DNA of 64,000 nucleotides from Nitrospirota bacterium (GTDB taxonomy: Bacteria > Nitrospirota > 9FT-COMBO-42-15 > HDB-SIOI813): NCBI GenBank assembly GCA_020851375.1, contig JADZCV010000048.1, positions 14,092 through 78,091 of the forward strand, in the 5' to 3' direction. Position numbers and translations under genes: made by a program. Shown here in pieces: positions 6,859-59,988 of the stretch (its first letter is position 1; each line of letters opens with the position of its first letter). The notes beneath the pieces were generated by a model. It had not been told where the DNA came from and did not search any database. It worked only from the letters and a program-made list of their open reading frames with translations.

Positions 6859-6987
6859 GATGAAAATCCCCCTTAGTCCCCCTTTTCCAAAGGGGGAAAG
6901 TAATTCTTCTCTGTGTAAAAGGGGGAAATTAGTTCCCCCCTTTAGTAAAGGGGGGATAGGGGGGATTTGAACGGAGATTTTCGAGTG
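6859..6987 (+). repeat. Family-A structured repeat (copy A1): G5/C5 multi-hairpin element ending in SD plus GTG
   Basis: aaaatccccc ttagt ccccc ttttccaaa ggggg ... cccccc tttagtaaa gggggg atag gggggatttgaacGGAGAttttcgaGTG. The outer arms are aaatccccc and gggggattt. Similar copies occur at six other loci. Confidence 0.8.
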
Positions 6988-8370
6988 AAGACAGAAATTA
7001 CCATAGATATTAACACCCTCCTTAAATATGACAAGGCCGGCCCGCGTTATACGAGTTATCCCACAGCCCCTGTCTGGAATGAGAAGTTCGGTCCTGAGCA
7101 GTTCAGGGAGAAGATTATTGAAACTAACAGGGCAGATAGCAGTGCACCTTTGTCATTATATTTTCACATCCCATTCTGCTATTCACTCTGTTTTTATTGT
7201 GGCTGCAACTCAATTATCACAAGGAAGAAGGGGCATGCAGGTGAGTATATCTCATATCTGAAAAAGGAGATGGAAAACATATCCCGCCTTGTCAAAAGAA
7301 ACAGGCAAGTGGTCCAGTTGCACTGGGGCGGGGGCAGCCCTGACTTTCTCAGTCCATCTGAGATGGAAGAATTGTACGGATATATAAAAGATAATTTTAC
7401 GATCGCTGTTGGTGCAGAGGCAGGGGTTGAACTTGATCCGCGTGAGACGACATTTGAGCACGTGCAGACCTTGAAAAGACTTGGGTTCAACCGCATCAGT
7501 ATGGGCATCCAGGACCTAAATCCACGGGTCCAGGAGGCTGTAAACAGGGTCCAGAGCGAAGAGACATCAGGAAGACTTGTCAACTGGTGCAGGGATCTTG
7601 GATTTGAGAGTATAAATGTAGACCTGATTTATGGGCTTCCATTTCAGACCGCAGATTCATTTAAGGAGACGGTTGACCGTATCATCGCCATCAATCCTGA
7701 AAGGATAGCAGTGTTCAATTATGCGCATGTACCCTGGATGAAGAAGCATCAGAAGATGATACATGAGGAAGACCTTCCAAAAGGGAGGGAAAAGCTTGAG
7801 ATACTCAAGATGGTCATTGAGAAATTCACAGGCGCAGGATATGTCTATATTGGTATGGACCATTTTGCAAAGCCGGATGATGAACTCTGCATCGCACAAA
7901 GAGAGAAGACCCTGTACAGGAATTTTCAGGGCTACACAACAAAGGCCGGCTGCGACCTCTATGGATTTGGCATGACCTCCATAAGCATGGTCGGCAACTG
8001 CTATGCCCAGAACCTGAAGGCGCTTAATGATTATTACGCTGCTGTAAGTGCCGGCAGGCTGGCAACTCACAGGGGCTATGAGCTGACAGATGATGATATC
8101 CTGAGGAGACATATTATTACGAGGCTGATGTGTGACTTCGAACTTGTCAAACATGAGGTTGAGTCAAAATACAACATATCCTTTGATGACTATTTCAGCG
8201 ATGCCTTAAAGAGGCTCGTGGCATTTCAGGATGACGGCTTGTTAAAACTTCAGCCTGACAGGATAGAGATCTCAGACTCAGGCCGCATACTTGTCAGGAA
8301 TATCGCAATGGTATTCGATGCTTATCTGAACGCCCCTGGCAGAGAGATGAAATTTTCGCGAACAATATGA
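6985..8370 (+). CDS. hemN: Oxygen-independent coproporphyrinogen III oxidase (radical SAM)
   Basis: Contains the radical-SAM Cys motif HIPFCYSLCFYCGC and the N-terminal KYDKAGPRYTSYPTAP characteristic of HemN. The ORF track starts at a TTG at 6967 inside the repeat. A GTG at 6985 with GGAGA 7 nt upstream is the more plausible start. Confidence 0.88.
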   Translation: MKTEITIDINTLLKYDKAGPRYTSYPTAPVWNEKFGPEQFREKIIETNRADSSAPLSLYFHIPFCYSLCFYCGCNSIITRKKGHAGEYISYLKKEMENISRLVKRNRQVVQLHWGGGSPDFLSPSEMEELYGYIKDNFTIAVGAEAGVELDPRETTFEHVQTLKRLGFNRISMGIQDLNPRVQEAVNRVQSEETSGRLVNWCRDLGFESINVDLIYGLPFQTADSFKETVDRIIAINPERIAVFNYAHVPWMKKHQKMIHEEDLPKGREKLEILKMVIEKFTGAGYVYIGMDHFAKPDDELCIAQREKTLYRNFQGYTTKAGCDLYGFGMTSISMVGNCYAQNLKALNDYYAAVSAGRLATHRGYELTDDDILRRHIITRLMCDFELVKHEVESKYNISFDDYFSDALKRLVAFQDDGLLKLQPDRIEISDSGRILVRNIAMVFDAYLNAPGREMKFSRTI

Positions 8371-9371
8371 CAGACGGCAAATCTACCACAGCAGTCCTTC
8401 TGATAAATATGGGCGGTCCTGATTCCCTGGATGCTGTTGAGCCCTTCCTTTATAATCTTTTTTCTGATTCAGACATAATGGGCTTTAACAGGGTATTACT
8501 CCCGGTTTTAAAACCACTTGCAAGGCTTATTGCACGCAGCAGGGCCCCAAAGGTAAAGAAATATTACAGCGCCATAGGTGGAAAATCACCTATAGTAAAA
8601 CTTACCATGCAGCAGGCAAAGGCCCTTGAAGAGTCACTTCAGAAACAGGGCAATATCTGGGTCTTTGTCTCCATGAGATACTGCCGCCCGACTATAGAAG
8701 ATGCAGTTAAGGACATGCTCGAGTTTCCATTGACCAAGCTTATAATCCTGCCGCTGTATCCCCACTACTCGGTTACGACAACAGGTTCGGCATTCAATGA
8801 GTTCAAGCGGATCCTGAAGGGGATAGGCACTCCTACAATCGAAATCCGTTATATAAATGACTGGCACGATAACCCATCGTACATTGATGCAGTGTGTGAA
8901 ACGATACAGGATACCGCCTCGCTGCACCACCTTGATATTCATAAGACTCCGGTTGTATTCAGCGCACACGGGTTACCCATGAAATTTATCAGGCGCGGCG
9001 ACCCGTATGCCAAGCAGGTGGAAAAGAGCGTTGAGCTGATCGCCGGCAGGCTCGGGAACCTGAAGGATTATCACCTGTCATATCAGAGTCGCGTGGGACC
9101 GTTGAGATGGCTCGGGCCGTCAACTGACGATGTCCTGAGACAGATCGGAAGTAAGGGGGCAAAAAACGTTATGTTAGTGCCGATCAGCTTTGTATCCGAG
9201 CATGTAGAAACCCTTTACGAGATGGATATCCTCTACAAAGAAAAGGCAGGAGAATACGGAATCACAAACTTCTACAGGGCCCCTGCACTAAACGATTCGC
9301 CTCTTCTGATTGATGCATTGAAGGAAATGGTAATTACAGCATGTATTCCCCCTTCTAATCCATTCTTCTGA
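8367..9371 (+). CDS. hemH: Ferrochelatase
   Basis: 334-aa ORF beginning MTDGKSTTAVLLINMGGPDSLDAVEPFLYNLFSD, the typical ferrochelatase N-terminus. Its start overlaps the hemN stop. Confidence 0.9.
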   Translation: MTDGKSTTAVLLINMGGPDSLDAVEPFLYNLFSDSDIMGFNRVLLPVLKPLARLIARSRAPKVKKYYSAIGGKSPIVKLTMQQAKALEESLQKQGNIWVFVSMRYCRPTIEDAVKDMLEFPLTKLIILPLYPHYSVTTTGSAFNEFKRILKGIGTPTIEIRYINDWHDNPSYIDAVCETIQDTASLHHLDIHKTPVVFSAHGLPMKFIRRGDPYAKQVEKSVELIAGRLGNLKDYHLSYQSRVGPLRWLGPSTDDVLRQIGSKGAKNVMLVPISFVSEHVETLYEMDILYKEKAGEYGITNFYRAPALNDSPLLIDALKEMVITACIPPSNPFF

Positions 9372-9397
9372 TTAAAAAAGCCGGGGGTCACAGAGGT

Positions 9398-9468
9398 AGA
9401 TGAAAATCCCCCTTAGTCCCCCTTTACCAAAGGGGGAAAGGGGGGATTTGAACGGAGAATTTCAGGTG
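9398..9468 (+). repeat. Family-A repeat (short copy A2)
   Basis: gatgaaaatcccccttagtccccctttaccaaagggggaaaggggggatttgaacggagaatttcaggtg, directly fused to a family-B module. Confidence 0.8.
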
Positions 9469-9655
9469 AACCGTCATGAGCCCTTCGACTGTTCGGCACG
9501 CTCACAGCTCGGGGCTCACCAGGGTTCATGAAAACGTCATTCCCGCGCAAGCGGGAATCCAGACCGCGGCCTGGTTCTGGATTCCCACTCCCAGCTTAAG
9601 TCATGCGGGGACAGGTTCCGTGGGAATGACGGGTATTTAGGAGTATTTTCGAATG
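9456..9655 (+). repeat. Family-B structured repeat (copy B1, one unit) ending in AGGAG plus the ATG start of hemY
   Basis: ...cgtcattcccgcgcaagcgggaatccagaccgcggcctggttctggattcccactcc...gggaatgacgggtatttAGGAGtattttcgaATG. It is the reverse complement of the 25.2-kb array unit. Confidence 0.8.
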
Positions 9656-11026
9656 AAAGTTATAATCATCGGCGGCGGCATTTCCGGCCTTACTGCTGCC
9701 TACTGGCTGCACAAAAGCGGTATTGATGTCACCGTCCTCGAAAAAGGAGATAGGGCCGGCGGGTCTATACGCACAGAAACGCATAAGGGCTACCTTATTG
9801 AATACGGCCCCAACTCTACACTCGACCTGTACAAAGAGGCGGATGACCTGTGCGAGTCACTCGGCATCAGTGGATATAAGATATACGGCAGTGAAGATGC
9901 AAAAAACCGTTATGTCGTCAGAGACGGCAGATTAAGGCCTTTACCACTTGGTCCTCTCCAGTTTCTGTCAACTGACCTCTGGACTATACAAGGGAAACTG
10001 AGGCTTATGTGCGAACCATTTATCCGCAAGTTCGCCGGCAGCCACGAGGAGACGATCGCTGAGTTCGTTAAGAGGAGGACAGGACAGGAGTTCCTCGATT
10101 ATGCCATTGACCCCTTTGTTACAGGGGTGTTTGCAGGAGATCCCTACAAACTTTCATTAAAGAGCTGTTTTCCAAAGATGTATGGTATGGAGCTTGAGCA
10201 TGGCGGGCTTGTGAAAGCCGCAATATTCGGAAGGAAAAAGAAGGGTGAGCCAAAGCGAAAGATGCGCCTTTTTTCATTCAGGGACGGCCTGGGAACTTTA
10301 CCTGAGGCAATAAGAAAGACCCTTGGTGACAGGTTTGTTGGTGGGTGTAACGTGCTGTCAGTGAAGAAGGCAGAAAAAGGTTTCGAAGTTATTACAGAAA
10401 ATGTTTCTGCCCCCACTCCACAGCCTGGACTTTTCAAGGCCAACATCGTCATCTTTGCTACACCTGCCTGGGCAACAGCAAGGTTGATCCAGCCGATATC
10501 CGAATATGTCGCTGCCCATCTGATGCAGATACAATACGTCCCTGCAGTAATCGTCTTCACAGGGTTTGACAGGGGACATATAAAACAGAAACTCGATGGC
10601 TTTGGCTTCCTCATACCGCGGAAAGAGTCCCGTGAACGGGGTTACAACATCCTCGGGAGCATCTGGAGCTCCGAAATTTTCGCAGGACGTGCGCCTGAGG
10701 GTAAGGCCGCCTTCACAACCATCCTTGGCGGCGCAAGGAAGGATGACATACTCGAATACAGCGACAGGGAACTCATTGAAATGACATTGCGTGACTTAAG
10801 GTACATCCTCGGTATAGAAGAAAAACCTGAGTTCGTACAGCTAATACGCCATACACGGGCAATCCCGCAATATATCATCGGCCATCAGGAGCGCATAGAT
10901 GCTGTTCAGGAGGCTATCAGGAAAATTCCCGGCTTATATCTCTCAGGCAACTACCTCAACGGTGTTTCAGTTGGACACTGCATAGCCGAGGCAACAAAAC
11001 TTTCGGCTGTGATGAAAGGGGTCTGA
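9653..11026 (+). CDS. hemY: FAD-dependent protoporphyrinogen/coproporphyrinogen oxidase (HemY/HemG-type amine oxidase)
   Basis: 457-aa ORF beginning MKVIIIGGGISGLTAAYWL, a Rossmann FAD-binding GxGxxG motif. It sits in the hem cluster. Confidence 0.82.
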   Translation: MKVIIIGGGISGLTAAYWLHKSGIDVTVLEKGDRAGGSIRTETHKGYLIEYGPNSTLDLYKEADDLCESLGISGYKIYGSEDAKNRYVVRDGRLRPLPLGPLQFLSTDLWTIQGKLRLMCEPFIRKFAGSHEETIAEFVKRRTGQEFLDYAIDPFVTGVFAGDPYKLSLKSCFPKMYGMELEHGGLVKAAIFGRKKKGEPKRKMRLFSFRDGLGTLPEAIRKTLGDRFVGGCNVLSVKKAEKGFEVITENVSAPTPQPGLFKANIVIFATPAWATARLIQPISEYVAAHLMQIQYVPAVIVFTGFDRGHIKQKLDGFGFLIPRKESRERGYNILGSIWSSEIFAGRAPEGKAAFTTILGGARKDDILEYSDRELIEMTLRDLRYILGIEEKPEFVQLIRHTRAIPQYIIGHQERIDAVQEAIRKIPGLYLSGNYLNGVSVGHCIAEATKLSAVMKGV

Positions 11027-11030
11027 CCCG

Positions 11031-11390: not shown

Positions 11391-11420
11391 CTCTAATTCA
11401 TCCTTAAAAAGGGGGCAGAT

Positions 11421-16317: not shown

Positions 16318-16908
16318 ATGAAAAAGAGCTGGATCATAATTGGCGTTATCATAATAGCAGTGATAATACTCTTCCGGTTATTCGTATCACCGTACAACAA
16401 CATGGTCAGGATGGAGGAAGGTGTTACCTCCCAATGGGCACAGGTAGAAAATGTGTACCAGAGGAGGGCAGACCTCATCCCAAATCTTGTAAACACAGTA
16501 AAGGGTTATGCCGCACATGAAAAAGAGACTCTCACACAGGTTATAGAGGCACGTTCCAGGGCAACTCAGGTCACAATTAATCCTGAGAAGTTAACGCCTG
16601 AGGCCCTGCAGCAGTTTCAGGAGGCACAGGGGGGACTCAGTTCAGCCTTGTCCCGCCTGATGGTGGTAGTCGAAAGATACCCGGACCTGAAGGCCAATCA
16701 GAACTTCCTGGAACTGCAGGCTCAGTTGGAGGGATCTGAAAACCGGATCGCTGTCGAGCGCAATAAATTTAATGAGACCGTCCAGCGATACAATGCATAC
16801 ATACGTTCCTTCCCGAACAATATCGTAGCCTCTATATTTAACTTTGAGAAAAAGCCATACTTTGAAGCCGACAAGGGTGCAGAAAAAGCGCCCGAAGTAA
16901 AATTTTAG
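16318..16908 (+). CDS. lemA: LemA family protein
   Basis: 196-aa ORF with an N-terminal TM helix, then NMVRMEEGVTSQWAQVENVYQRRADLIPNLVNTVKGYAAHEKETL, the conserved LemA core. Confidence 0.85.
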   Translation: MKKSWIIIGVIIIAVIILFRLFVSPYNNMVRMEEGVTSQWAQVENVYQRRADLIPNLVNTVKGYAAHEKETLTQVIEARSRATQVTINPEKLTPEALQQFQEAQGGLSSALSRLMVVVERYPDLKANQNFLELQAQLEGSENRIAVERNKFNETVQRYNAYIRSFPNNIVASIFNFEKKPYFEADKGAEKAPEVKF

Positions 16909-17403: not shown

Positions 17404-18193
17404 GCACTTACTTTATTCCGCAGTATTATTTTTACTTTTCATTCCTGCCGTATTATTTGCCGAGACCTTTCCACAAAGGCCCTCCCCTCCGCGGCTTGTC
17501 AATGACTACACCAATACCCTGAAACCGGAAGAGCAGGAGGTGCTGGAGAGGAAACTCGTTGAGTTTGACAATACAACGTCTACCCAGATTGTAATCGTCA
17601 TTCTGGAAACCCTTGACGGCTACCCAATCGGCGACTACACAGTAAAACTCGGTGAGGAGTGGGGTGTTGGCCAAAAGGACAAGAATAACGGAGCTGTAGT
17701 GCTCGCAGCCATGAAAGACCGCGAGGTCTTTATCGCTACCGGCTATGGCCTTGAAGGTGCAATCCCTGACGCACTTGCAAAACGGATTGTAGAGTTCGAC
17801 ATAAAACCATATTTCAAACAGGGGCTCTACTACGAGGGGCTTGACAGGGCAACGGACTCAATGATAGCCCTGGCTAAAGGCGAGTATACTGCAGAAAGGC
17901 ACAGCAAACCGGGCGTGCCCATCTTTTTCCGCATCCCCTGGTTTTTTATCATTTTTGTTATCATCTTTTTCATCATTATGCTTAGCCGGGCAAGAAGGTA
18001 TCGCGGCATCGCCTCCAATAATAACGTCCCCTTCTGGATGGCACTCATACTCGCAAACATGGGAAGCCGCCACCATCGGGGCAAGTGGGACGATTTCTCG
18101 TCAGGCGGCGGAGGCTTCGGCGGCGGCAGCGGGGGTTTCGGCGGCTTCGGTGGAGGAAGTTTCGGGGGCGGAGGCGCCGGAGGCAGGTGGTAG
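17360..18193 (+). CDS. TPM-domain membrane protein with a C-terminal Gly-rich tail (YgcG-like)
   Basis: Has a signal/TM segment LLYSAVLFLLFIPAVLFA, a TPM core (EQEVLERKLVEFDNTTSTQIVIVILETLDGYPIGDYTVKLGEEWGVGQKDKNNGAVVLAAMKDREVFIATGYG), a TM helix IPWFFIIFVIIFFIIML, and a tail GGGGFGGGSGGFGGFGGGSFGGGGAGG. It overlaps the upstream TPM gene by about 40 nt in another frame. The exact start (17360 or 17372) is uncertain. Confidence 0.7.
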   Translation: MNYQMRSYSARRIHKHLLYSAVLFLLFIPAVLFAETFPQRPSPPRLVNDYTNTLKPEEQEVLERKLVEFDNTTSTQIVIVILETLDGYPIGDYTVKLGEEWGVGQKDKNNGAVVLAAMKDREVFIATGYGLEGAIPDALAKRIVEFDIKPYFKQGLYYEGLDRATDSMIALAKGEYTAERHSKPGVPIFFRIPWFFIIFVIIFFIIMLSRARRYRGIASNNNVPFWMALILANMGSRHHRGKWDDFSSGGGGFGGGSGGFGGFGGGSFGGGGAGGRW

Positions 18194-18558
18194 GAGCAGG
18201 GATTTTCAGGTGAACCGTCATGAGCCCTACGACTGTACGACAAGCTCACAGCTCAGGGCTCACCAAGGTTAATGAAAACGTCATTCCCGCGTAAGCGGGA
18301 ATCCAGACCGATGGCATGATTCTGGATTCCCACTCCCCGCTTGATCATGCGGGGACAGGTTCCGTGGGAATGACGGGTACTTAGGAGTATTTTCGAGTGA
18401 AACGTCATGAGCCTCAGCCTCACAAAGGTTAATGAAAACGTCATTCCCGCGTAAGCGGGAATCCAGACCGAGGCCTGGTTCTGGATTCCCACTCCCCGCT
18501 TGATCATGCGGGAACAGGTTCCGTTGGAATGACGGGTAGATAGGAGAATTTTCTGGTG
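18190..18558 (+). repeat. Family-B repeat (copy B2, about 1.8 tandem units) ending in the GTG start of fhs
   Basis: Two near-identical modules, each ...cgtcattcccgcgtaagcgggaatccagacc...ctggattcccactccccgcttgatcatgcggg[g/a]acaggttccgt[g/t]ggaatgacgggta(c/g)(t/a)taggag(t/a)attttc(g/t)(a/g)gtg. The first module begins at the stop codon of the TPM gene. Confidence 0.85.
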
Positions 18559-20184
18559 AAACATATCTCAGAAATTGCCGCTTCCATAGACCTTGTATCT
18601 CACGAAATTGACAAACACGGCCAATATATAGCAAAGGTCACACCAGCAGGTCTTGAAAAACGATTATCTCCACGACGCGGTAAATACGTCGTCCTTACAG
18701 CCATAACCCCAACCGGCTCAGGAGAAGGAAAAACAACTGTTGCCATAGGCCTTGGCATGGCAATGTGGCGGATCGGCAAAAAAGGGGTCGTCACCCTGCG
18801 ACAGCCGTCATTAGGGCCGCTTTTTGGTATGAAGGGTGGGGGCACAGGCGGAGGAAAGGCCATGCTGCTGCCGCAGGAGACGATAAACCTTGGTCTGACA
18901 GGCGATAACTACAGGGTGAACGCAGCCCACAACCTCCTGAGCTCCTTTGCAGATAATCATATCTACCGTAACAGCCCCATTAATATTGATCCCGCCAGCC
19001 TCTTCTGGCCGCGTACAGTAAATATCAATGACAGGGCGCTTCGTGAAATTATTGTCGGCTCAAATGAAAAGGGCGGAGGATTCCCTCATCCCGGCCGCTT
19101 TGTTCTTACAGAGGCGTCAGAGGTAATGGCAATCCTCTCCCTCTCTTCTACGCTCAAAGACATGAGGGAGCGTCTTGGCAGGATCATAGTCGCCTTAAAT
19201 AAGAACGGCGCCCCTGTGACAGCAGAGGACATAAAGTGTGCAGGGGCAATGGCAGTTATCTTGCGCGATGCACTGCGCCCCAACTTATTACAGACCTCAG
19301 AAGGGACTCCAGCCTTCGTACATACAGGACCGTTCGCAAATATAGCCCCGGGCATAAGTTCACTCATTGCAGATCAGCTCGCGCTATCTCTTGCTGATTA
19401 TGTAATAACAGAGGCGGGCTTCGGCGCTGATCTCGGTTTCGAAAAACTCGTAGACATAAAGTGCCGGTCGGGCAACCTCTATCCTGATTGCGCAGTGGTG
19501 GTTGTTACACTGAAAAGTCTTAAGACGCACGGAGGAAATCCAGACGGTGGACTTGCAGAGATAGACAGGGGAATGTCACATCTCGAAAAACAGATTGAGA
19601 ATGTAAAATATTTTAAAGTGCCCCTTGTTGTTGGTGTTAACAGACACGAGGACGATAAAGGGGATGAGATAAACTATTTGCTCAAATGTATTGAAGCACT
19701 TGGCGTAAGGGCGGTTACGGTGACGCCATGGAAAGATGGCGGGGCAGGGGTGGTTGACCTTGCAAAGGCCGTAGAAGAGATTACCGCAGGGCCCGTCACA
19801 GACACCAGACAGCGACGATTTCTATACGACCTGAATACCCCGGTCGAGGATAAAATTAACACGATAGCCCAAATTATGTATGGCGCAAAAGATGCAGCGT
19901 TCTCTGAAACGGCAATGATAAAATTACAACTGATAAACAGGCTGGGACTCAGCAACCTCCCCGTGTGCATGGCAAAGGTCCACAACTCACTCTCACATAC
20001 ACCTAAACTTTACGGAAGGCCAAAAGGGTTTACACTCCCGGTCGAAGAAATACATATTGCTGCAGGCGCTGGATTTATCTACCCGATCTGTGGAAGGATA
20101 TTTCCCCTCCCGGGCCTGCCATCCAAACCTCTTGGTGAAGAGATGGACATAGATACAGATACCTGGGAGATTCGTGGATTATAA
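18556..20184 (+). CDS. fhs: Formate--tetrahydrofolate ligase
   Basis: 542-aa ORF with a GTG start. It contains the P-loop ITPTGSGEGKTTVAIGL and the conserved FTHS body. Confidence 0.93.
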   Translation: MKHISEIAASIDLVSHEIDKHGQYIAKVTPAGLEKRLSPRRGKYVVLTAITPTGSGEGKTTVAIGLGMAMWRIGKKGVVTLRQPSLGPLFGMKGGGTGGGKAMLLPQETINLGLTGDNYRVNAAHNLLSSFADNHIYRNSPINIDPASLFWPRTVNINDRALREIIVGSNEKGGGFPHPGRFVLTEASEVMAILSLSSTLKDMRERLGRIIVALNKNGAPVTAEDIKCAGAMAVILRDALRPNLLQTSEGTPAFVHTGPFANIAPGISSLIADQLALSLADYVITEAGFGADLGFEKLVDIKCRSGNLYPDCAVVVVTLKSLKTHGGNPDGGLAEIDRGMSHLEKQIENVKYFKVPLVVGVNRHEDDKGDEINYLLKCIEALGVRAVTVTPWKDGGAGVVDLAKAVEEITAGPVTDTRQRRFLYDLNTPVEDKINTIAQIMYGAKDAAFSETAMIKLQLINRLGLSNLPVCMAKVHNSLSHTPKLYGRPKGFTLPVEEIHIAAGAGFIYPICGRIFPLPGLPSKPLGEEMDIDTDTWEIRGL

Positions 20185-21249: not shown

Positions 21250-21693
21250 TTACTTTTGTTTTGCCACCCATGCAGCTATTTCTTTATTAAACTTTTTTAA
21301 GATATCCAGCTTGCCTGTAAGGGCCTCGTATACCTTCTTTGAATCAAGGTTCACATATTCATGGATAAGCACATTCCTGAAACCTCCAAAACCTTCAAGT
21401 CCCTTTGACAGCTTCCTGGATATGACCTTCTTGTTTGCAAGTCCCCTGGTAATATCTTCATATTCATCACAGTATTCGGAATACATACTTGAGAGAATAT
21501 GTGCCCCGATATCAAAAACCATTTCTGCCGTAATTATGAATCCACGTTCAACAATCCACTGTGTTTTTATATCAGCCTTGTACTTATTCCATGAAATCCC
21601 CTTGTATTCCTCCAACACCTTCAGTGTCTCATCCATTTTAAGCAGCCGGTCTTCTATAGATTCTTTCCTATACACCATGACGGAGACCCTCAT
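21250..21693 (-). CDS. hepT: HepT-like (DUF86) toxin of a HepT/MntA type VII toxin-antitoxin pair
   Basis: 147-aa ORF with the R-x4-HxY motif in GGFRNVLIHEYVNLD near the C-terminus. It lies downstream of, and overlaps, the mntA gene. Confidence 0.78.
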   Translation of the reverse strand: MRVSVMVYRKESIEDRLLKMDETLKVLEEYKGISWNKYKADIKTQWIVERGFIITAEMVFDIGAHILSSMYSEYCDEYEDITRGLANKKVISRKLSKGLEGFGGFRNVLIHEYVNLDSKKVYEALTGKLDILKKFNKEIAAWVAKQK

Positions 21694-22072
21694 GCATGTT
21701 CCTGAGATAAATACGTCTCAGGTGTTTTTTATCCATATATGTCTGCCATGTCTTTAACTCAAAGTCATTCAGCAGGTCTTCATTCTTAAAATAAATAACC
21801 CTGCCTTCTCTTATTATCTGGTACCTGAAGGATGCAGGTTTATCGCTCATCGTGACAAGGTCAATCTTCTCCGTTCCCAGTGCTTTTGTTATCCTGGCCC
21901 ATAATTTACAATATCTATCAAGTGTAAGCTTCGGGGCATAGATGGCAATATCAATGTCAGAGGTCTTCCTTGCCTTTCCTGCAACGTGAGAACCAAAGAG
22001 ATAGGCAATCTCTACATCCTGAAATTCCTGCCAGATGGATGTGAGTTCCTTATTAATCTTTCGTATATTCAT
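21668..22072 (-). CDS. mntA: MntA-like minimal nucleotidyltransferase antitoxin
   Basis: 134-aa ORF. LFGSHVAGKARKTSDIDIAIY contains the GS-x9-DxD nucleotidyltransferase motif. Its last 26 nt overlap the hepT start. Confidence 0.78.
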   Translation of the reverse strand: MNIRKINKELTSIWQEFQDVEIAYLFGSHVAGKARKTSDIDIAIYAPKLTLDRYCKLWARITKALGTEKIDLVTMSDKPASFRYQIIREGRVIYFKNEDLLNDFELKTWQTYMDKKHLRRIYLRNMHEGLRHGV

Positions 22073-22149
22073 CAGATTGCCCTTGCCGTTAATGTAACAT
22101 TATACTAAGAATTCCCACGAAGTATAAAGACATTTATTTAACTTGATAA

Positions 22150-22296
22150 TTCCCTGTAGCTTGCTACAGGTTTTCCTGTCATTCCCACGAAAGTGGGAAT
22201 CCAGTTTTTGCTTTGATCTGGATTCCTGCTTACGCAGGAATGACGTTGAAGTTGCTTAGATACCCTGCAGCTTGCTGCAGGGTTCTTCATTCAGTA
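22150..22296 (-). repeat. Divergent family-B-like element (B3) bracketed by twin hairpins
   Basis: The core is gtcattcccacgaaagtgggaatccagtttttgctttgatctggattcctgcttacgcaggaatgacg (cf. the 25.2-kb unit). It is flanked by ccctgtagcttgctacagg (22152-22170) and ccctgcagcttgctgcaggg (22263-22282). Confidence 0.6.
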
Positions 22297-25160: not shown

Positions 25161-25161
25161 C

Positions 25162-28569: not shown

Positions 28570-28574
28570 ATTCA

Positions 28575-29622: not shown

Positions 29623-29624
29623 TC

Positions 29625-44229: not shown

Positions 44230-44246
44230 TTCATGCCCTCCATGCG

Positions 44247-44343
44247 TTCACTCGAAAATCTCCGTTCAATTCCCCCTATCCCCCTTTACTAAAGGGGGGG
44301 AACGAATTTCCCCCTTTGGAAAAGGGGGACTAAGGGGGATTTC
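44247..44343 (-). repeat. Family-A repeat (A5) between gyrB and gyrA
   Basis: The reverse complement reads aaatccccc ttagt ccccc ttttccaaa ggggg aaattcgtt ccccccc tttagtaaa ggggg atag ggggaattgaacGGAGAttttcgaGTGaac. Confidence 0.8.
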
Positions 44344-44368
44344 TCATCTGCCTTTGTGAGCCCCCATT

Positions 44369-47960
<3,592 letters not shown>

Positions 47961-47980
47961 ATTATCACCTTCCTTTTCTT

Positions 47981-49300
47981 TTACTCTTTGATCTTTTTTA
48001 TCAAATCATCTATCAGATAAACCATATTGGGGTCATTTGCCTTTAGCTTTTCTATCATGTTACATGCATAAATTACCGTTGAATGGTCCTTTCCACCAAA
48101 GAGCCGTCCTATCTCAGGAAAAGACATCTTAAGGAGCTCCCGGCATAAAAACATGGCAATTTGCCGCGGAACAACGAGGGTCTTTGTCCGCTTCTTTGAT
48201 TTAAGGTCAACCATCTTTATGTTAAAGTGGGCTGTTATCACCTTCTGTATTTTATCAACCGTTATTTTCTCTTCCCGCTCCCTGATAATATCTTTAAATA
48301 TACGTTTTGCAAGTTCAAGAGAAAGCTCCTGACCTGTCAGCGATGAGAAGGCACCAAGCCGTATCAGGGCCCCCTCCAGTTCTCTGACATTTGTCCTTAT
48401 GTTCTCAGCAAGAAACATTGCAACATCGTCCGGGAAAATAACGTGTGGAAATTCACCGGCTGCCTTCTTTTTAAGTATTGCAATCCTTGTCTCTATGTCC
48501 GGAGGCTGTATGTCCGCCAGCAGTCCCCACTCAAACCTCGAACGGAGCCGTTCATCTATATGTTGAATATCCTTTGGAAAGCGGTCGCTTGTAATAACAA
48601 TCTGTTTTCGCGCCTCGTAAAGGGCATTAAATGTATAAAAGAACTCTTCAACGGTCCTGTCTTTTCCGGCAATAAACTGAATATCATCCATAAGAAGCAC
48701 ATCTATGTTGTTTCTGTACTTATTTCTCAGGTCTATGGTCTTATTGTTTAAAATAGCCTGAATCACCTCATTGGTAAATTGCTCGGAGGAAACATACAGT
48801 ATTCTGCAGGAAGGTTTAGCTGCCATAATATGGTTTCCTATGGCATTAAGAAGATGCGTCTTTCCCAGCCCAACACCGCTGTAAATAAACAGAGGATTAT
48901 ATCCTGAACCCGGCGCCTCTGCTACTGCCCTTGTTGCAGCATGTGCAAACTGATTGCTCGGACCAATTACAAAAGAATCAAACGTATACTTTGGATTTAA
49001 TTTTTCATCCTTCTTCTTTCTTAATCCGGTTGCTGGAGATGACTCTGCTGCTGAATCCTTAAGGTCTTCGCAGACCACAAAATCAATGTCTATTTCCTTT
49101 CCGGCAACCTTTTTTACAGTGTTTTTAATAACATCCATAAAATGATCCCTTAACCAGTTGCCAAGGAACACACTTGGAACTCCAATCTCCATAAAATTTT
49201 CCTTTAGTGAGTAGAGCCTGGTAGTGCGGAACCAGTTGTCAAAACTCTGTCTTGTAATTACATTTTCAATTTCTGAAAGACTAATTTCCCAGATATCCAT
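47981..49300 (-). CDS. dnaA: Chromosomal replication initiator DnaA
   Basis: 439-aa ORF with the AAA+ Walker A NPLFIYSGVGLGKTHLL and the C-terminal DNA-binding signature ...KDHSTVIYACNMIEK. Confidence 0.95.
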   Translation of the reverse strand: MDIWEISLSEIENVITRQSFDNWFRTTRLYSLKENFMEIGVPSVFLGNWLRDHFMDVIKNTVKKVAGKEIDIDFVVCEDLKDSAAESSPATGLRKKKDEKLNPKYTFDSFVIGPSNQFAHAATRAVAEAPGSGYNPLFIYSGVGLGKTHLLNAIGNHIMAAKPSCRILYVSSEQFTNEVIQAILNNKTIDLRNKYRNNIDVLLMDDIQFIAGKDRTVEEFFYTFNALYEARKQIVITSDRFPKDIQHIDERLRSRFEWGLLADIQPPDIETRIAILKKKAAGEFPHVIFPDDVAMFLAENIRTNVRELEGALIRLGAFSSLTGQELSLELAKRIFKDIIREREEKITVDKIQKVITAHFNIKMVDLKSKKRTKTLVVPRQIAMFLCRELLKMSFPEIGRLFGGKDHSTVIYACNMIEKLKANDPNMVYLIDDLIKKIKE

Positions 49301-49589
49301 TTAAACATTCCACAAACAATTTACAAACATAGTTATCAACAGGTGTTAATAACCCTGTTAATTACTTACATTACAAAGAGTTGAATATATATGAACATGC
49401 AGCTTAAATATACTTATTGGTACTGAATGAGGGACTTTTTACTATAACAGACTATTTATATAAAGGCAATGTCATAATACTTAAAAATGTCCCCGGTTAT
49501 AAACAACTTCATCAACTGAATTACCCTTATTATTCAATTAATTATAAATCTATCCACAAACTAACAGCTATTAATACTACTACTATATT
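49301..49589. other. Putative chromosomal replication origin (oriC): an AT-rich region with DnaA-box-like 9-mers upstream of dnaA
   Basis: The region is more than 70% AT. DnaA-box-like 9-mers (8 of 9 matches to TTATCCACA) are TTATCAACA at 49333, TTATAAACA at 49497 and CTATCCACA at 49550. A run atattttaaatatatatatttatataa lies at the distal end. The gene order is dnaA-dnaN-gyrB-gyrA. Confidence 0.5.
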
Positions 49590-55252: not shown

Positions 55253-55828
55253 TTATCCGAACAATGCATCTTCCACAACCTGGCAAATCACATGCCCTAA
55301 GGTAATGTGGACCTCCTGTATGCGCGGAGTGGATTGGGATGGGACGACAAAGGCATAATCAGCAAGAGAGGCAAGCCTGCCTCCGCCTCCGCCTGTCAGG
55401 CCAATTGTGGTAATCCCCAAATTCTTTGCAGCCTCAACAGCTGCCACTACATTTGGAGAGTTGCCGCTCGTACTGATCGCAATAACTATATCACCCTTCC
55501 TTGAAAGCGCCTCTACCTGACGGCTGAATACAAGGTCATATCCGTAATCGTTGCCGATGCTGGTTATGACTGCCATATCAGTATTAAGGGCGATTGCAGG
55601 GAGCGGAGGCCTGTCCTTTTGAAACCTGTTTACAAACTCACCGGCTATATGTGAGGCGTCAGATGAACTTCCGCCATTGCCCATCAGGAGGAGCTTGTTT
55701 CCATTCCTGAACGCAGAAATTATCAGCTCAGAAACCTCTCCTATGAGTTGAGAATACTGTGATATAAACAGTTCCTTTGTCCTGATGCTATCCGCGAATA
55801 GATTTCTTATTTTGTCATCCATCTTCAC
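55253..55828 (-). CDS. gmhA: Phosphoheptose isomerase (SIS domain)
   Basis: 191-aa ORF with SIS motifs [19 protein letters not shown] and [15 protein letters not shown]. It has a GTG start. Confidence 0.83.
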
Positions 55829-55829
55829 T

Positions 55830-56172
55830 CGAAAATACTCCTAAGTACCCGTTATTCCCACGGAACCTGCCCCCGCAGGATTTTTCACCCGTCATTCCCA
55901 CGCAAGTGGGAATCCAGAACCAGGCCCTGGTTCTGGATTCCCGCTTTCGCGGGAATGACGTTTTTACGATACCTTGTGAGCGCAATCTCATGACGGTTCA
56001 CCTGCAAATGCTCCTAAGTACCCGTTATTCCCACAGAACCTGCCCCCGCAGGATTTTTCACCCGTCATTCCCACGCAAGTGGGAATCCAGAACCAGGCCC
56101 CGGTCTGGATTCCCGCTTTCGCGGGAATGACGTTTTTACGATACCTTGTGAGCGCAGTCTCATGACGGTTCA
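55830..56172 (-). repeat. Family-B repeat (B6, about 1.7 tandem units) supplying the SD and start for gmhA
   Basis: cttcactcgaaaatactcctaagtacccgttattcccacggaacctg...gtcattcccacgcaagtgggaatccagaaccaggccc(tg/cg)gt(tc/c)tggattcccgctttcgcgggaatgacg... appears twice. Confidence 0.85.
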
Positions 56173-56268
56173 TCTGAAAATCCCCGTTCAAATCCCCCCT
56201 ATCCCCCCTTTAGTAAGGGGAGAACTAATTTCCCCCTTTGAAAAAGGGGGACTAAGGGGGATTTTCAT
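56172..56268 (-). repeat. Family-A repeat (A6) fused to the B6 array, after the hpf stop
   Basis: tccccgttcaaatcccccctatcccccctttagtaaggggagaactaatttccccctttgaaaaagggggactaagggggatttt. Confidence 0.8.
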
Positions 56269-56275
56269 GGTGATT

Positions 56276-56629: not shown

Positions 56630-56632
56630 ATC

Positions 56633-58051
56633 TTAATCCTCCTGTTCTTTGGTTGTTTCTTCAAATCCGTCAAGGAATAACTCTATTATCCGGTCCCTTA
56701 TGGTTGATTCACGTTTGTCGCCAAAATGTCTGAAAAAGTTCCTGAGCGGGACTACAGCCTTGGCCATATGGCTATGCCCGCCGGCGCTGCCGAACTGGCT
56801 GAAGGCGTTTTTGACAATTACGCCTGCACTCCTGACATACCCTACGTTTCTGACAGATATTATCAGATTCCCCCTGAATATTCCAGAGACAACTGACCAC
56901 TCTACCCCCTCTATCTGCAGGGAGAAGTCTGCAAAGTGGGGTATCACGTCCTCCCGCCTTACCTTGCCAAGATGTGAAAACAGGATATTTTTTACAATCC
57001 TCCTTTTCTTGAGCGCATTACTGAAGGAATCAATATCTTCAGGATGTACCTCAGGGCGCTCTATTCTCCTCAGGATGTTTGCATTTGCAAGGGTATACAG
57101 ATAAGAGAAGGCCTCGATATCAGCCGGGTCAACACCCCTTCCAAGCAGGAGGGTATCGCTCTTAATTCCATACAGCAGGGCAGTCGCGAGCCGCTGGGAT
57201 ATATTGAATTCAACAGCCCTTAGATATTCAGTAAGGATAGAGGAGGTTGCCCCATAATTGGCTTTTATGTCTTTAATTTTTGCCTGATAACCCGGTTTTT
57301 CCGGGTGATGGTCTATTACAACATCTGCCATGATGATGCACTGATTATTATTTGTAAACAGATGGGGAGGCTGAACATCGAGCAGGCAGAGGCTGTCATA
57401 TTTCCTGATCACGTCAGGCGTGATCTTCTCAACCTCTATATCCAGCAGCCTGATCATTGCAAGATTCTCAGGTCTTGTTACCTCTCCAAATGATGCAATA
57501 TGCGCTGTAGACCTGTTTCGCCCTATCAGGTGCCGGAAGGCAAGGGCGCTGGCTATTGCATCAGGATCCGGATCTGACTGTATAAGGAGGAGAATCCTGT
57601 CTTTATCAGTAAATAACTCCCTTATCCGCTGGACATGTTTTTTTTTAAATGCCTCTTCTATCTTCGGCTGACAAAGTTCTGTGAAAATCGAAGATGGTTT
57701 TACAATCTTTGCACTGAGCTGTTCCGGCAAGTCCACCTCTTTTTCTTCTATTATTATAGTGGGCTGGTAGGGGTGATACTTTGCAACCAACTTCAAGATA
57801 GCTGATAAAAAAGACCTGTTCTTTACCGAGATGATAAGGCAGCTATCCGGTTTTAACTGCAGGTTTCTAAAGAACCTGTCCCGGTCTGTATCAAAAGCAG
57901 ACACCTCTGCAGATACTCCCTGACCATGGAGTCTTTCGTATAATGCGGGGGTATTTACAATGAAATGTACGGTATCCCTTCTGGTAGAAAGGGTCTTAAG
58001 GAGCATTAAGAAATACGGGAGTTCGTCCTGACAGAGGATAATGTAATCCAT
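56633..58051 (-). CDS. DHH-DHHA1 family phosphoesterase (NrnA-like) with an extra N-terminal domain
   Basis: 472-aa ORF with the DHH motif VVIDHHP, the preceding LLIQSDPDPDAIASALAF, and the DHHA1 GGH motif GSAGGHSHMAKA. Confidence 0.72.
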   Translation of the reverse strand: MDYIILCQDELPYFLMLLKTLSTRRDTVHFIVNTPALYERLHGQGVSAEVSAFDTDRDRFFRNLQLKPDSCLIISVKNRSFLSAILKLVAKYHPYQPTIIIEEKEVDLPEQLSAKIVKPSSIFTELCQPKIEEAFKKKHVQRIRELFTDKDRILLLIQSDPDPDAIASALAFRHLIGRNRSTAHIASFGEVTRPENLAMIRLLDIEVEKITPDVIRKYDSLCLLDVQPPHLFTNNNQCIIMADVVIDHHPEKPGYQAKIKDIKANYGATSSILTEYLRAVEFNISQRLATALLYGIKSDTLLLGRGVDPADIEAFSYLYTLANANILRRIERPEVHPEDIDSFSNALKKRRIVKNILFSHLGKVRREDVIPHFADFSLQIEGVEWSVVSGIFRGNLIISVRNVGYVRSAGVIVKNAFSQFGSAGGHSHMAKAVVPLRNFFRHFGDKRESTIRDRIIELFLDGFEETTKEQED

Positions 58052-59784
58052 TATTTTCCTGACTTATGAAGCCTGAGGGCCTTTTTATTGAATTGCAGGG
58101 CCTTGTTGTATTCCCCACACTTGATATAAATATTCCCTATTCCGAGGTAGGCCAGCTCCATGGATAATCTGTCGCCGAGTTTCATATGTATGTTAAGTGC
58201 CCTGGTAAGAAACTGAAGCCCGCGCTTATAATTTCCCTTACTGCTGTAGACCGACCCTATCCGGGCATAAGCATTTCCAATGCCGGGTTTATTGTCCATC
58301 TCGTTATAAATGTCCACTGACCGGAAGAGAAAATCAAGCGCCTTGTCATATTCGCCCCTGCTGCTGTAAATATTGCCAAGGCTTACCTGAATATTAGCCA
58401 GCGCCGACTGCTCACCGCTCTTATTGCCTATTTCCTTGAAGATGTCAAGCGCCATCTCCTGGTGTTTAAGTGCAGACTCAAAGTCTCCCTTACTGCTGTA
58501 AATATTTCCGATATTGGCATAAACAGTTCCCACACCCAGCTTATTGCCGAGATTTTGATGGATCCGGCGGGCCTTGTGATGAAAATCGAGGGCCTTTTCA
58601 TAGTCCCCCTGATGACAGTATGTATTTCCTATATTGGTGTATACGCTCCCGACTCCAACAAGATTGTTGAGCTCCTCATGAATTTTCAGGGCCTTATTAT
58701 AATAATCGAGCGCCCGTGGATAGATCCCCTTGTGGCTGTATATATTTGCAATGTTGGAATAGTCGCTTCCTTCCCCCAGCCGGTTTGCCAACTGCCTGTG
58801 GATAGTCAGGGCCTTTTTATAATAACTAAGCGCCTTGTCATACTTCCCCATTTCGGCATAGATAGTCCCGAGGTTGGCGTGGTCATTGGCCTCGCCGAGC
58901 CTGTGGCCCAGATGGGCATGTATCTTTAAGGCCTTCTCATAGTAGCGAACGGCATTATTTTGGTCTCCCTGAATGTTGTAGATATTCCCGATGTTTGTAT
59001 AATCATTTCCTTCCCAGATACGGTTTTGCAGGCGGCGGTGAATTGCAAGGGCGCGCTTATGATGTTCGAGGGCGTTTGAGTAATCACCCCTTTTGCTCAG
59101 GACATTTCCGATATTGGCATAGATATTTCCCTCACCGAGCCTGTACTCTACAGCTTTGTATATCTCAAGGGCCTTTTCATAATAAGTCATGGCCTTCTTG
59201 TAATCTCCCTGGAATTTGTAGAGTATCCCAAAGCTGCTGTAGTCGTGACCTATTTCAAGTGTCCTGCCCAGCGACTTGTGGATAGTCAGGGCCTTTTTAA
59301 AATAAGTGCCAGCCTCCCCTGTCTTTCCCTGAATAGCCATTATGGTGCCTATATTGTTGTAAGCCCCCCCTTCTTCCACCTTGTCACCGCTCTTCTTAAA
59401 CATAGCGAGGGCCTCTTCAAAGCACCGGATAGCCTCAGCATACTTGCCTTTTTTGGAATGAATGGCGCCGATCCGCCTCAATGACTTGCCATGTCCGTTA
59501 TTATATCCGGAGGTTATGGCATCCTGCAGGGCATGTTTATAGAATTCGATGGCTGCGGAATATTCACTCTGTGAATCAGCAATCTTTCCATACAGGAGGG
59601 CTATCTCTGAATGGACGTCCTTTTTCCCGGGATTCAGGGATGATACCCTGTCGAGATGAGAGGATGCCTTCTTGTATTCCCCCCTGTCTATTGCAGATTC
59701 TATAAGGACCAACTGCCGTTCTAAGGAACTATCCATGTCAGGATTTACATTATACACAAACTTGACTTCCATGTCACCTTTCAC
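58051..59784 (-). CDS. Tetratricopeptide-repeat protein (about 13 TPR units)
   Basis: 577-aa ORF with iterated 40-aa units: A..NIGNIY...G.Y..AL.YY.KAL.IH..LG.R.GEG. Confidence 0.8.
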   Translation of the reverse strand: MKGDMEVKFVYNVNPDMDSSLERQLVLIESAIDRGEYKKASSHLDRVSSLNPGKKDVHSEIALLYGKIADSQSEYSAAIEFYKHALQDAITSGYNNGHGKSLRRIGAIHSKKGKYAEAIRCFEEALAMFKKSGDKVEEGGAYNNIGTIMAIQGKTGEAGTYFKKALTIHKSLGRTLEIGHDYSSFGILYKFQGDYKKAMTYYEKALEIYKAVEYRLGEGNIYANIGNVLSKRGDYSNALEHHKRALAIHRRLQNRIWEGNDYTNIGNIYNIQGDQNNAVRYYEKALKIHAHLGHRLGEANDHANLGTIYAEMGKYDKALSYYKKALTIHRQLANRLGEGSDYSNIANIYSHKGIYPRALDYYNKALKIHEELNNLVGVGSVYTNIGNTYCHQGDYEKALDFHHKARRIHQNLGNKLGVGTVYANIGNIYSSKGDFESALKHQEMALDIFKEIGNKSGEQSALANIQVSLGNIYSSRGEYDKALDFLFRSVDIYNEMDNKPGIGNAYARIGSVYSSKGNYKRGLQFLTRALNIHMKLGDRLSMELAYLGIGNIYIKCGEYNKALQFNKKALRLHKSGK

Positions 59785-59858
59785 TATAATCCCAAATTAC
59801 TTTTCATAATAGATGCATCATCTCAGAGACTCAACAGCATTATTATTGTTACAATGGC

Positions 59859-59988
59859 AGATGAAAAATCCCCCTTAGTCCCCCTTTACAAAGGGGGAAA
59901 GTATTCCCTCTCTGCATAAAAGGGGAACATCCGTTCCCCCCTTTAGTAAAGGGGGGAGAGGGGGGATTTGAACGGAGAATTTCAAGTG
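59859..59988 (+). repeat. Family-A repeat (A7) ending in GGAGA plus the GTG start of the export gene
   Basis: gatgaaaaatccccc ttagt ccccc tttacaaa ggggg aaagtattccctctctgcataaaa gggg aacatccgtt cccccc tttagtaaa gggggg agag gggggatttgaacGGAGAatttcaaGTG. It is nearly identical in architecture to A1. Confidence 0.85.

Follow-up and report, generated by a model that had tools for sequence, protein, structure and literature searches.

What are the palindromic repeats that lie directly against the starts of housekeeping genes in a Nitrospirota genome, and how did they come to sit there? The question is raised by a 64-kb stretch (hereafter the window) of a metagenome-assembled genome of a Nitrospirota bacterium (contig JADZCV010000048.1, positions 14,092 to 78,091), in which two repeat families, A and B, end in the same terminal module. 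This module, called M3 below, consists of GGAG, a U-rich spacer of 7-9 nt, GTG or ATG, and then AA. The window was compared with about 185 kb of relatives' sequence, syntenic loci from seven related genomes (HemC identity 86-75%; single loci are denoted by L numbers). We propose, with moderate confidence, that the A and B units are non-autonomous elements resembling REPINs (doublets of repetitive extragenic palindromic, REP, sequences) and MITEs (miniature inverted-repeat transposable elements), with two interchangeable cores, which split stop/start junctions and restore the start of the downstream gene with an initiation region of their own.

Two repeat families with a common terminal module

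Repeat finding recovered both families at the places given in an earlier note on this DNA. The note had counted thirteen loci; the census gives 11 loci, with seven A units, nine B units and one partial B core. In family A an outer stem, AAATCCCCC...GGGGGATTT, surrounds one (short form) or two (long form) hairpins of the type CCCCCTTT-N3-AAAGGGGG, which occurs 11 times in the window against 0 expected; the long form is laid out as AAATCCCCC-TTAGT-CCCCCTTT..AAAGGGGG, a spacer and an inverted copy. Family B units measure 159-202 nt, often no multiple of three, and their core is formed by two inverted ATTCCC-N8-GGGAAT hairpins (15 exact matches in the window, 0.01 expected) in the order GTCATTCCCGCGTAAGCGGGAATCCAGA, 8-12 nt, TCTGGATTCCCACTTRCGTGGGAATGAC. 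The B arrays contain 1-3 units with two hairpins each, at spacings of about 22 nt and about 150 nt, their spacer modules belong to two or three subtypes only, and the arrays adjoin housekeeping genes. Units follow one another head to tail, as the note had described: A-B at hemY, A-B-B at gmhA, B-B at fhs and B-B-B at tilS. With 11 loci in 64 kb, compared with 0-2 cores per 20 kb in the relatives' syntenic regions, the genome of the window is unusually rich in these elements. The units and the features tied to them are as follows.

6865-6989, + strand: A unit, long form with two hairpins; ends GGAGATTTTCGA-GTG-AA, GTG 6985 being the predicted hemN start; ATGAA (6860-6864) precedes it.
9405-9470, + strand: A unit, short form with a single hairpin; ends GGAGAATTTCAG-GTG-AA; a B unit follows directly.
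9471-9657, + strand: B unit, subtype i; ends TAGGAGTATTTTCGA-ATG-AA, ATG 9653 being the predicted start of hemY (protoporphyrinogen oxidase).
18193-18214, + strand: terminal motif without a core, GGAGCAGGGATTTTCAGGTGAA, immediately following the stop of the TPM-domain gene upstream; left border of the fhs array.
18215-18401, + strand: B unit, subtype i, first of two; ends TAGGAGTATTTTCGAGTGAA.
18402-18560, + strand: B unit with short left module, second of two; GTG 18556 is the predicted start of fhs (formate-tetrahydrofolate ligase).
22175-22250, - strand: partial B core, two inverted dRS3-type hairpins without M3, upstream of an MNT/HepT pair; other small hairpins flank it.
25771-25760, - strand: TTTTCAGGTGAA, preceding the tilS array, directly after the ribF stop TGA (25774-25772).
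25157-25771, - strand: array of three B units, subtype ii (25759-25559, 25558-25357, 25356-25157).
ATG 25160, - strand: end of the tilS array, GGAACATTTTCGG-ATG-A; the ATG opens the tilS open reading frame (ORF).
28571-28694, - strand: A unit, long form, its first bases overlapping the hemC stop; ends GGAGATTTTTGT-GTG-AAT-ATG; candidate hemD starts GTG 28575 or ATG 28569.
29618-29826, - strand: CAGGTGAA (29826-29819, the putative old hemC start region) and one B unit (29818-29618).
GTG 29622, - strand: end of the hemC B unit, TAGGAGTATTTTCGA-GTG-AA; the GTG is the predicted hemC start.
34442-34539, + strand: A unit inside an Rsm22-like methyltransferase gene (33923-35116), in frame and in sense, with degenerate M3 and TTGAA on both sides.
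44247-44342, - strand: A unit between gyrB and gyrA; ends GGAGATTTTCGA-GTG-AA.
44231-44251, - strand: six-codon mini-ORF from the M3 GTG; its TGA lies one base before the gyrA TTG (44229), which has a GGAGGG of its own.
55824-56263, - strand: gmhA array A (56263-56169), B (56168-55996), B (55995-55824); ATGAA (56268-56264) precedes it.
55828/55822, - strand: end of the gmhA array, TAGGAGTATTTTCGA-GTG-AAG-ATG; candidate gmhA starts GTG 55828 or ATG 55822.
59762-59790, + strand: promoter-like site (TTGACT, 17 nt, TATAAT; 11/12 consensus matches), upstream of the next unit and conserved in L260.
59866-59990, + strand: A unit, long form, in the 5' leader of a polysaccharide-export (wza-like) gene; ends GGAGAATTTCAA-GTG-AA, GTG 59986 opening the ORF.

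M3 closes every unit apart from the partial B core and, as a degenerate copy, the A unit inside a gene; these two qualify the statement that every module ends in the motif. The 16-mer that the note had given for this ending has 7 matches with at most two mismatches in the window (0.24 expected), and is slightly off for the A units, which read GGAGATTTTC without the extra base. A looser pattern (GRRG, 0-4 nt, TTTY, 2-4 nt, RTGA) has 14 matches, 13 of which are unit ends; the remaining one (56270, + strand) corresponds to an A left end read in reverse complement. About 60% of the other genes in the window have an SD (Shine-Dalgarno) site that belongs to the GGAG/GAGG/AGGA type, none with a TTTTC spacer.

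The TGAA joint

The limits of the units are sharp. When eight A units were aligned together with their flanks, the sequences were invariant up to TGAA and diverged at the very next base, and (A/T)TGA(A/G) stood directly before seven of the eight. Every B unit is preceded by CAGGTGAA or by its variants CAGATGAA (first B unit of gmhA) and CGAGTGAA (second B unit of fhs), and ends in RTGA(A). The joint can thus be written TGAA | unit ... TGAA |, with TGA(A) on both sides of the palindromic units in most copies. At ribF|tilS of the window the left TGA is the stop codon of ribF; in L125, L257 and L258 it is likewise the stop of the upstream gene. The A unit within the methyltransferase gene has TTGAA on both sides with no start codon involved, therefore the joint is independent of a start codon.

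The same comparison indicates what belongs to a unit. Three B ends share an identical TACTTAGGAGTATTTTCGAGTGAA and two A ends an identical TTGAACGGAGATTTTCGAGTGAA, beyond which they diverge, and strings of 24-25 nt running from the core through M3 and ending at TGAA are identical at unlinked loci. Since these core-to-M3 strings recur at unlinked loci, M3 appears to travel with the units.

Genes predicted to start inside a repeat

Profiles of NCBIfam identify the genes downstream of the arrays as hemN, hemY, fhs, tilS, hemD, hemC, gyrA, gmhA and a polysaccharide exporter, and the profile alignments begin a few residues from the M3 codon. These are the nine loci at which the note had placed the gene start inside or near the motif; gyrA has its own TTG start, 22 nt downstream and in another frame. 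The same succession of M3 codon, mini-ORF and real start recurs in L232 and at hemD of L125.

M3 inside the repeats opens eight long ORFs and is the only credible start in four of them. For hemN, hemY, fhs and hemC, a stop in the same frame lies 15-39 nt upstream of the M3 codon, and the next 40 codons offer no other start; in hemY, fhs and hemC this stop is the TAG of the B-unit M3 itself, and only hemN has an additional in-frame TTG, 18 nt upstream, inside the hairpin and without an SD. Because of the upstream stop and the lack of an alternative, the repeat codon is the only possible predicted start of these four genes. The note had assigned such a start to six; gmhA and the wza-like gene are the two with alternatives. 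An ATG lies two codons downstream of the M3 codon in gmhA, and likewise in tilS and hemD, and the wza-like gene has later TTG/ATG candidates. In comparison with the relatives, the M3 codon of gmhA and of the wza-like gene lies exactly at the position of the native ATG, GTG stands in the window where relatives have ATG, and hemN has lost two codons, in the window as in L135, relative to the empty sites described below. Several essential genes are thus probably translated from start codons, and from GGAG sequences acting as ribosome-binding sites (RBS), that were supplied by a repeat.

HemC, HemY and GmhA of the window have counterparts with 100% identity among the NCBI proteins of metagenome-assembled genomes. 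Public annotation treats these starts inconsistently: the NCBI hemC begins at the repeat GTG (309 aa), gmhA at the ATG two codons after the repeat GTG (189 aa). The HemY homologues in relatives range from 453 to 498 aa.

Orientation follows the genes. All 11 units or arrays run the same way as the local gene, with the strands alternating along the window, and all ten M3-bearing arrays face a gene; the claim that orientation matches the served gene stood for these arrays, the A unit at 34442-34539 not being at a gene start. Ten of the 11 loci are extragenic. Nine arrays lie between co-directional genes, where they fill the spacer from stop to start, and one lies in a 5' leader, that of the wza-like gene, whose A unit would be within the 5' untranslated region since the promoter-like site at 59762-59790 is upstream of it. 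An orientation set by the direction of replication, as in IS200/IS605 insertion sequences (IS), was rejected as the sole cause, for the + - + - + alternation follows the local genes. We consider that selection, rather than the chemistry of insertion, would have fixed the orientation. The contrast that had been drawn with ordinary REP/BIME elements, said to sit downstream of genes, falls away: nearly all copies here are downstream of one gene and upstream of the next, and their cores are REP doublets (see below).

The intragenic A unit lies in a variable loop of the Rsm22-like methyltransferase, where it adds about 10-25 residues (KIPLTPPFSKGEIRPSPLEKGGRGDLNP) in comparison with individual orthologues, the loop being shorter in all three; it appears to be translated.

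Empty and occupied junctions in related genomes

At five of the junctions, related genomes have no element. hemE|hemN is a 14-nt spacer without insert in L134 and L136; hemH|hemY reads TGAaATG without insert in L134, L135 and L136; ribF and tilS overlap as ATGA in L128 and as GTGA in L131 and are separated by a plain spacer in L258, again without insert; hemA|hemC has neither a core nor a B unit in L125 and L131; and hpf|gmhA is a 21-nt spacer without M3 in L259. The empty junctions of the related genomes are ATGA/GTGA overlaps or spacers of 1-21 nt. As the same junctions are empty in related genomes, the elements are insertions. At ribF|tilS the window has ...CAGTGA | array ... TTTTCGGATGA | CCATG..., for which the GTGA overlap of L131 would represent the ancestral state. 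The search for empty sites and target-site duplications that the note had suggested thus yielded the former; the latter are taken up in the next section.

Some of these junctions are occupied differently. hemA|hemC holds an A-type unit in L128, an unrelated palindrome in L257 and half an A unit in L258, and at hemN, L135 has a dRS3-like unit. In L258, a more distant relative (HemC 75% identical), a B unit is found at 16530-16680 in which the M3 start codon is mutated to ATA; the AhpC-like gene downstream uses its own AAGGAGG-ATG, and the left joint is again TGAA|ACGTC. This copy suggests that the family is old in the clade and that M3 decays when it is not needed. At ribF|tilS of L257 (7195-7290, GCA_016234155.1), about 29 nt of the ribF 3' end (CACTTCGTGGGTACCCCGAAATCAAAAT) are directly repeated after the stop and followed by an AT-rich insert that ends in the terminal motif GGTTATTTTCGGGTGAAAG.

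Insertion, older site or recombination

We propose that the elements occupy the transcribed junction between co-directional genes, entering beside a TGA(A) that would be the old stop codon or start region of the junction. Such an insertion would come between a stop and a start that ancestrally overlapped as RTGA or stood a very short spacer apart; the stop would stay with the upstream gene and the downstream frame would be rejoined to the RBS and start codon of the element. Because the right end recreates the TGAA joint, further units could be added head to tail, and because the sense orientation alone restores the downstream start, only this orientation would survive. The opposite one would place terminator-like sites, hairpins followed by T-runs, inside the operon. 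Recombination between flanking copies of the motif probably adds to the growth of arrays and to the exchange of cores. The elements would thus be mobile, and a RAYT/IS200-type single-strand transposase (RAYT, REP-associated tyrosine transposase) would be the natural candidate for the enzyme.

Several observations weigh against this proposal. A simple target-site duplication is not demonstrated, as the left and right TGA(A) copies differ in the preceding base (ATGAA vs GTGAA). No transposase was found among the window proteins scanned, which were part of the ORFs, or in the Pfam lists of the relatives' loci. M3 is present at hemA|hemC in all six genomes, behind different cores, a pattern as compatible with an exchange of cores by recombination as with repeated insertion. 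Core-less, motif-like GGGGTTTTCGGATGAA and its variants occur at the same junctions, namely at hemC in L125 and L131, at gmhA and the wza-like gene in L260 and at tilS in L125, so that M3, instead of being cargo, could be a target site or an independent feature of greater age. The sample is one 64-kb window and the syntenic sequence of the relatives, not a genome-wide survey. Copy numbers in arrays may be wrong, since three arrays come from a short-read metagenome bin and independent assemblies break inside the repeats.

The main rival takes up the core-less copies: M3 would be an older initiation motif specific to this lineage, the operator of a translational regulator or an attachment site, which only some gene starts have and upstream of which REP cores insert or recombine, and orientation would be imposed by the directional target. 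M3 without a core at orthologous starts (hemC of L125 and L131, gmhA and the wza-like gene of L260), the persistence of M3 at hemA|hemC in six genomes behind four different cores or none, and arrays bordered by M3 on both sides, as expected of att-like integration, all agree with it. It has to account, however, for true empty sites that have no M3 (tilS in L128, L131 and L258, hemY in L134-L136, gmhA in L259), for the identical 24-25 nt strings that run from core into M3 at unlinked loci and for the intragenic A unit, which brought a degenerate M3 into a coding region. The tilS spacer of L125 resembles a decayed B tail; this and the motif-free empty sites argue that core-less M3 copies can be remnants. 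On balance we judge an older M3 to be rather unlikely.

Alternatively, the units may have spread without a transposase, by gene conversion, unequal crossing-over or circle excision and reintegration between the flanking M3 direct repeats. Direct repeats of 12-20 nt do flank every unit, the number of units varies among arrays, different cores stand in the same frame at one site in different genomes, and in the tilS array units 1 and 3 are 96% alike, with unit 2 nearer to the hemC unit. This process cannot explain the first arrival of units at M3-free junctions (tilS, hemY, gmhA) or the intragenic copy flanked only by TTGAA, and 12-20 nt of homology is short for RecA-dependent exchange; as the sole route it is improbable.

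An artefact of assembly or binning, in which repeats were collapsed or mis-joined in a metagenome contig, would have to be considered for array lengths, which are uncertain: independent Logan contigs with hemC extend over only about 1 kb and break off within the flanking repeats. The same contigs reproduce the B-tail/M3/hemC and hemC/A junctions exactly, other assemblies, a 589-kb contig among them, have similar elements at the same junctions, and the reading frames are intact across every junction, which leaves such an artefact a negligible probability as an explanation of the units themselves. Insertion of elements that carry M3 is our preferred explanation.

RNA structure and transcription signals

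In RNA folds the cores are very stable (z = -5 to -6), and M3 is unpaired, downstream of the hairpins. The cassette of SD and start codon fused to gene starts, as first described, holds in this respect too: it always faces a gene and is exposed. The earlier note had also considered a structured regulatory RNA, and the units could be leaders selected by the host, either a regulon-wide cis-regulatory RNA or the source of a processed small RNA. Very stable folds with an exposed RBS, several G-U pairs on the sense strand of the consensus fold and the fact that four of the genes served belong to haem biosynthesis would accord with this idea. The consensus fold of 10 B units has a double change in 3 of 45 predicted pairs, which amounts to almost no covariation, the B copies being too similar for covariation, so that the fold says nothing for or against an RNA function. 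Rfam matched only a tRNA in the whole window, and even at E<=1 only chance hairpin matches far below the gathering threshold. The downstream genes, among them gyrA, tilS, fhs, gmhA and a polysaccharide exporter, are unrelated in function, in relatives the same junctions work without units, and in other phyla the same hairpins show no sense bias (see below). A host-selected RNA leader is thus very improbable.

A consensus scan, limited to sigma-70-type promoters, gave no match inside any unit. Each B unit of subtype ii has two terminator-like sites on the antisense strand, composed of a hairpin and a T-run, and its sense strand has none; some A ends, too, were flagged as terminator-like in antisense.

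The frames within the units are short. The ORF started by M3 in B stops after 11-21 codons at an internal ATGA (61 codons in the first B unit of gmhA), and the B frame closing with the final TGA is interrupted by a stop nine codons upstream and contains no start codon. The mini-ORFs contain a variable TTCGACTG mini-repeat. The ORF internal to A units is open in three of the five copies checked by eye. A leader peptide or a through-ORF like that of the mycobacterial MIRUs was rejected, as the mini-ORF varies in length and is absent from short units, and the A-internal ORF is broken in the other two of the five. An integron attC site and a CRISPR array were also rejected, there being no GTTRRRY core and no regular repeat-spacer array.

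The cores are REP doublets whose hairpins recur in distant phyla

By definition, a REPIN consists of a hairpin-bearing REP sequence and its inverted copy, a short spacer apart (bioRxiv 10.1101/2021.07.10.451892). The two REPs of a REPIN, each with a short palindrome, are less than 130 bp apart and have a variable spacer. Judged from their sequence, both cores are such doublets of inverted REP hairpins. REPINs are almost exclusively extragenic and have no fixed relation to gene starts; the present units depart from them here, with 10 of 10 M3-bearing arrays abutting a start codon in sense.

The B hairpin has a known counterpart. dRS3 is a 20-bp inverted repeat, ATTCCCNNNNNNNNGGGAAT, in Neisseria (PMC1797815), and the 15 exact matches of the B hairpin fit its consensus. 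dRS3 had been described as specific to Neisseria, and the carrier here belongs to the Nitrospirota. ATTCCCGCGCAAGCGGGAATC, at 9539-9559, is identical in 20 of 21 positions to the master 21-mer of the N. meningitidis REPINs, ATTCCCGCGCAGGCGGGAATC, and blastn aligned the B hairpin at 97% over 32 nt in N. gonorrhoeae. In a plasmid collection B matched Neisseria and Sphingopyxis fragments only and A had no match. Full-text search found the B hairpin sequence in Neisseria papers only, and the A hairpin sequence in none of the papers searched. A metagenome scan with the 15-mer GTGAACCGTCATGAG gave 120 loci, nearly all of them chance matches, with real B units only in L232, L155 and L166.

The A hairpin is more widespread. 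The A-core 21-mer AATCCCCCTTAGTCCCCCTTT (6864-6884 and six other A units of the window) has at least 120 exact matches in about 19 phyla among species-representative genomes, against about 0.3 expected by chance according to our own estimate; the source genome and its close relatives are not among the matches listed. Nearly all of these matches have the full hairpin; their carriers include anammox Planctomycetota, Dehalococcoidia, Omnitrophota, Patescibacteria, Leptospiraceae and cultured Bacteroidota, and several genomes have 5-8 copies in the loci listed. M3 was found at none of the listed loci. Between co-directional genes the listed hairpins are in sense in 16 cases and in antisense in 29, and many lie in convergent spacers. 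As the hairpins listed from other phyla lack both M3 and a sense bias, the link to gene starts would be a property of the composite units of this lineage and not of the hairpins.

Combined with the TGA(A) joint, this distribution allows a more specific version of the proposal, which we offer tentatively and consider possible but on the doubtful side. Single-strand hairpin elements of the HUH/RAYT type would insert 3' of TGA(A), which the common ATGA/GTGA overlap of stop and start creates, and repair the site themselves through a 3' RBS and RTGAA; operon junctions of essential genes (gyrA, hemC, tilS) would be a safe niche for selfish DNA, in which the elements become entrenched since their loss removes the start; and hairpins that are nearly identical over about 19 phyla would reflect horizontal spread or a conserved binding protein.

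Comparison with known repeat systems

The earlier note recognised no described class in these repeats, a view that three precedents contradict. The REP2 repeats of Neisseria and the inverted repeats (IR) of Borrelia carry an RBS and an ATG fused to ORFs (Delihas 2011, PMC3184786; citing Parkhill 2000, Morelle 2003, Dunn 1994). Like the present units, they are dispersed repeats, of 120-150 bp, with internal stem-loops, and it is the repeat that supplies the translation start. REP2 and IR carry a promoter, precede transcription units and have no terminal inverted repeats, while the present units are mostly intra-operon and have no promoter-like match. The latter also differ, in a comparison made by description only, in their REP-doublet palindromes, two cores, head-to-tail chains and mostly GTG starts.

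The third precedent is formed by the MIRUs (mycobacterial interspersed repetitive units), which insert at start codons in one orientation (PMC12548453). Like the present units, they are intercistronic, lie at the start codon in one orientation and often form head-to-tail tandems; they appear to do minimal harm downstream. The RTGA joint would correspond to the -4 stop/start overlap of the MIRUs. MIRUs preserve expression by means of a through-ORF with translational coupling to the gene; in the present units no frame continues to the end, and the SD and start of the unit itself would be needed for expression. MIRUs, unlike the present units, are not REP-type palindromes.

With REPINs and with the dRS3/NIME system of Neisseria the units share two inverted REP hairpins, the dRS3 match of the B hairpin and mosaic, modular arrays like those of NIMEs. 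However, neither REPINs nor NIMEs have been described with an RBS, a start codon or a fixed orientation to genes. NIME arrays are said not to occur outside Neisseria (PMC1797815); they are long, comprise many RS families of 50-150 bp flanked by dRS3 copies and stand beside variable surface-protein genes. The arrays here have one to three units and stand beside housekeeping genes. REPINs are held to be lineage-specific and vertically inherited, in contrast to the hairpins found here, which are common to several phyla, and the genome that carries them has one copy of a cognate RAYT (Y1/HUH) transposase gene, as a rule with REPs on its flanks. Rickettsia palindromic elements (RPEs) form in-frame fusions with ORFs (reviewed in PMC3184786), as one A unit does here, a single case; the main niche of the A/B family is the intercistronic junction, unlike the coding sequence occupied by RPEs.

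Correia/NEMIS and ERIC elements have no sequence similarity to the present units. They are palindromic MITEs in intergenic positions that are co-transcribed and, through their orientation and hairpins, can influence how neighbours are expressed, and they contribute promoters, integration host factor (IHF) sites or RNase processing sites, not an RBS with a start codon. Correia elements are mentioned in PMC1797815 and PMC3184786. A MITE derives from a parent IS and has terminal inverted repeats and a target-site duplication; the units here are palindromic, and most have TGA(A) on both sides, in copies that are not identical. Elements of the IS200/IS605 (PATE) type have subterminal hairpins and insert strand-specifically 3' of a 4-5 nt target without duplication. 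The joint TGAA | unit ... TGAA | would fit such an insertion; the orientation here follows the genes across strand switches. We do not regard the units as members of any one of these families: they lack the promoter of REP2 and the through-ORF coupling of MIRUs, and have a relation to gene starts that REPINs and NIMEs do not.

Neighbouring features

The cluster dnaA-dnaN-gyrB-gyrA (41785-49589, minus strand) lies beside a stretch of low GC content (37-39% GC, 48-52 kb), and this is probably the origin region of the chromosome. In the region 21250-22300, the toxin-antitoxin pair of an MNT nucleotidyltransferase and HepT is downstream of the partial B core, which is flanked by CCTGCAGCAAGCTGCAGGG-type hairpins and a box that by eye resembles TATAAT. 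The pair looks like a separate insertion, as it is absent at this position in L125 and L128. The gene at 58051-59784, for a tetratricopeptide-repeat (TPR) protein, contains direct repeats (58050-59310) spaced by 120, 240, 360 and 600 nt; they are coding TPR repeats unrelated to the A/B elements. In L136 (12869-21383, GCA_964611625.1), genes for a phage-type integrase, an AAA_25 protein and a terminase-like (GpA) protein lie downstream of queG, in what looks like a prophage or integrated element that breaks the synteny with the window.

What the repeats would mean for their host

If the proposal is correct, hemC, hemN, hemY and fhs, and probably gmhA, tilS and hemD, use starts and RBS donated by repetitive DNA. 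In practical terms, gene callers are inconsistent on starts borne by repeats, and assemblies break at the units. The two REP hairpins that cross phyla, one of them being the meningococcal REPIN hairpin, conflict with the view of REPINs as lineage-specific. The rare REP2 and MIRU precedents would be extended to palindromes of the REP/REPIN type and to an uncultured phylum, and the arrangement would explain why small mobile repeats that settle in the stop/start junctions of operons, where a bacterial genome is tightest, leave their host alive and are then hard to lose.

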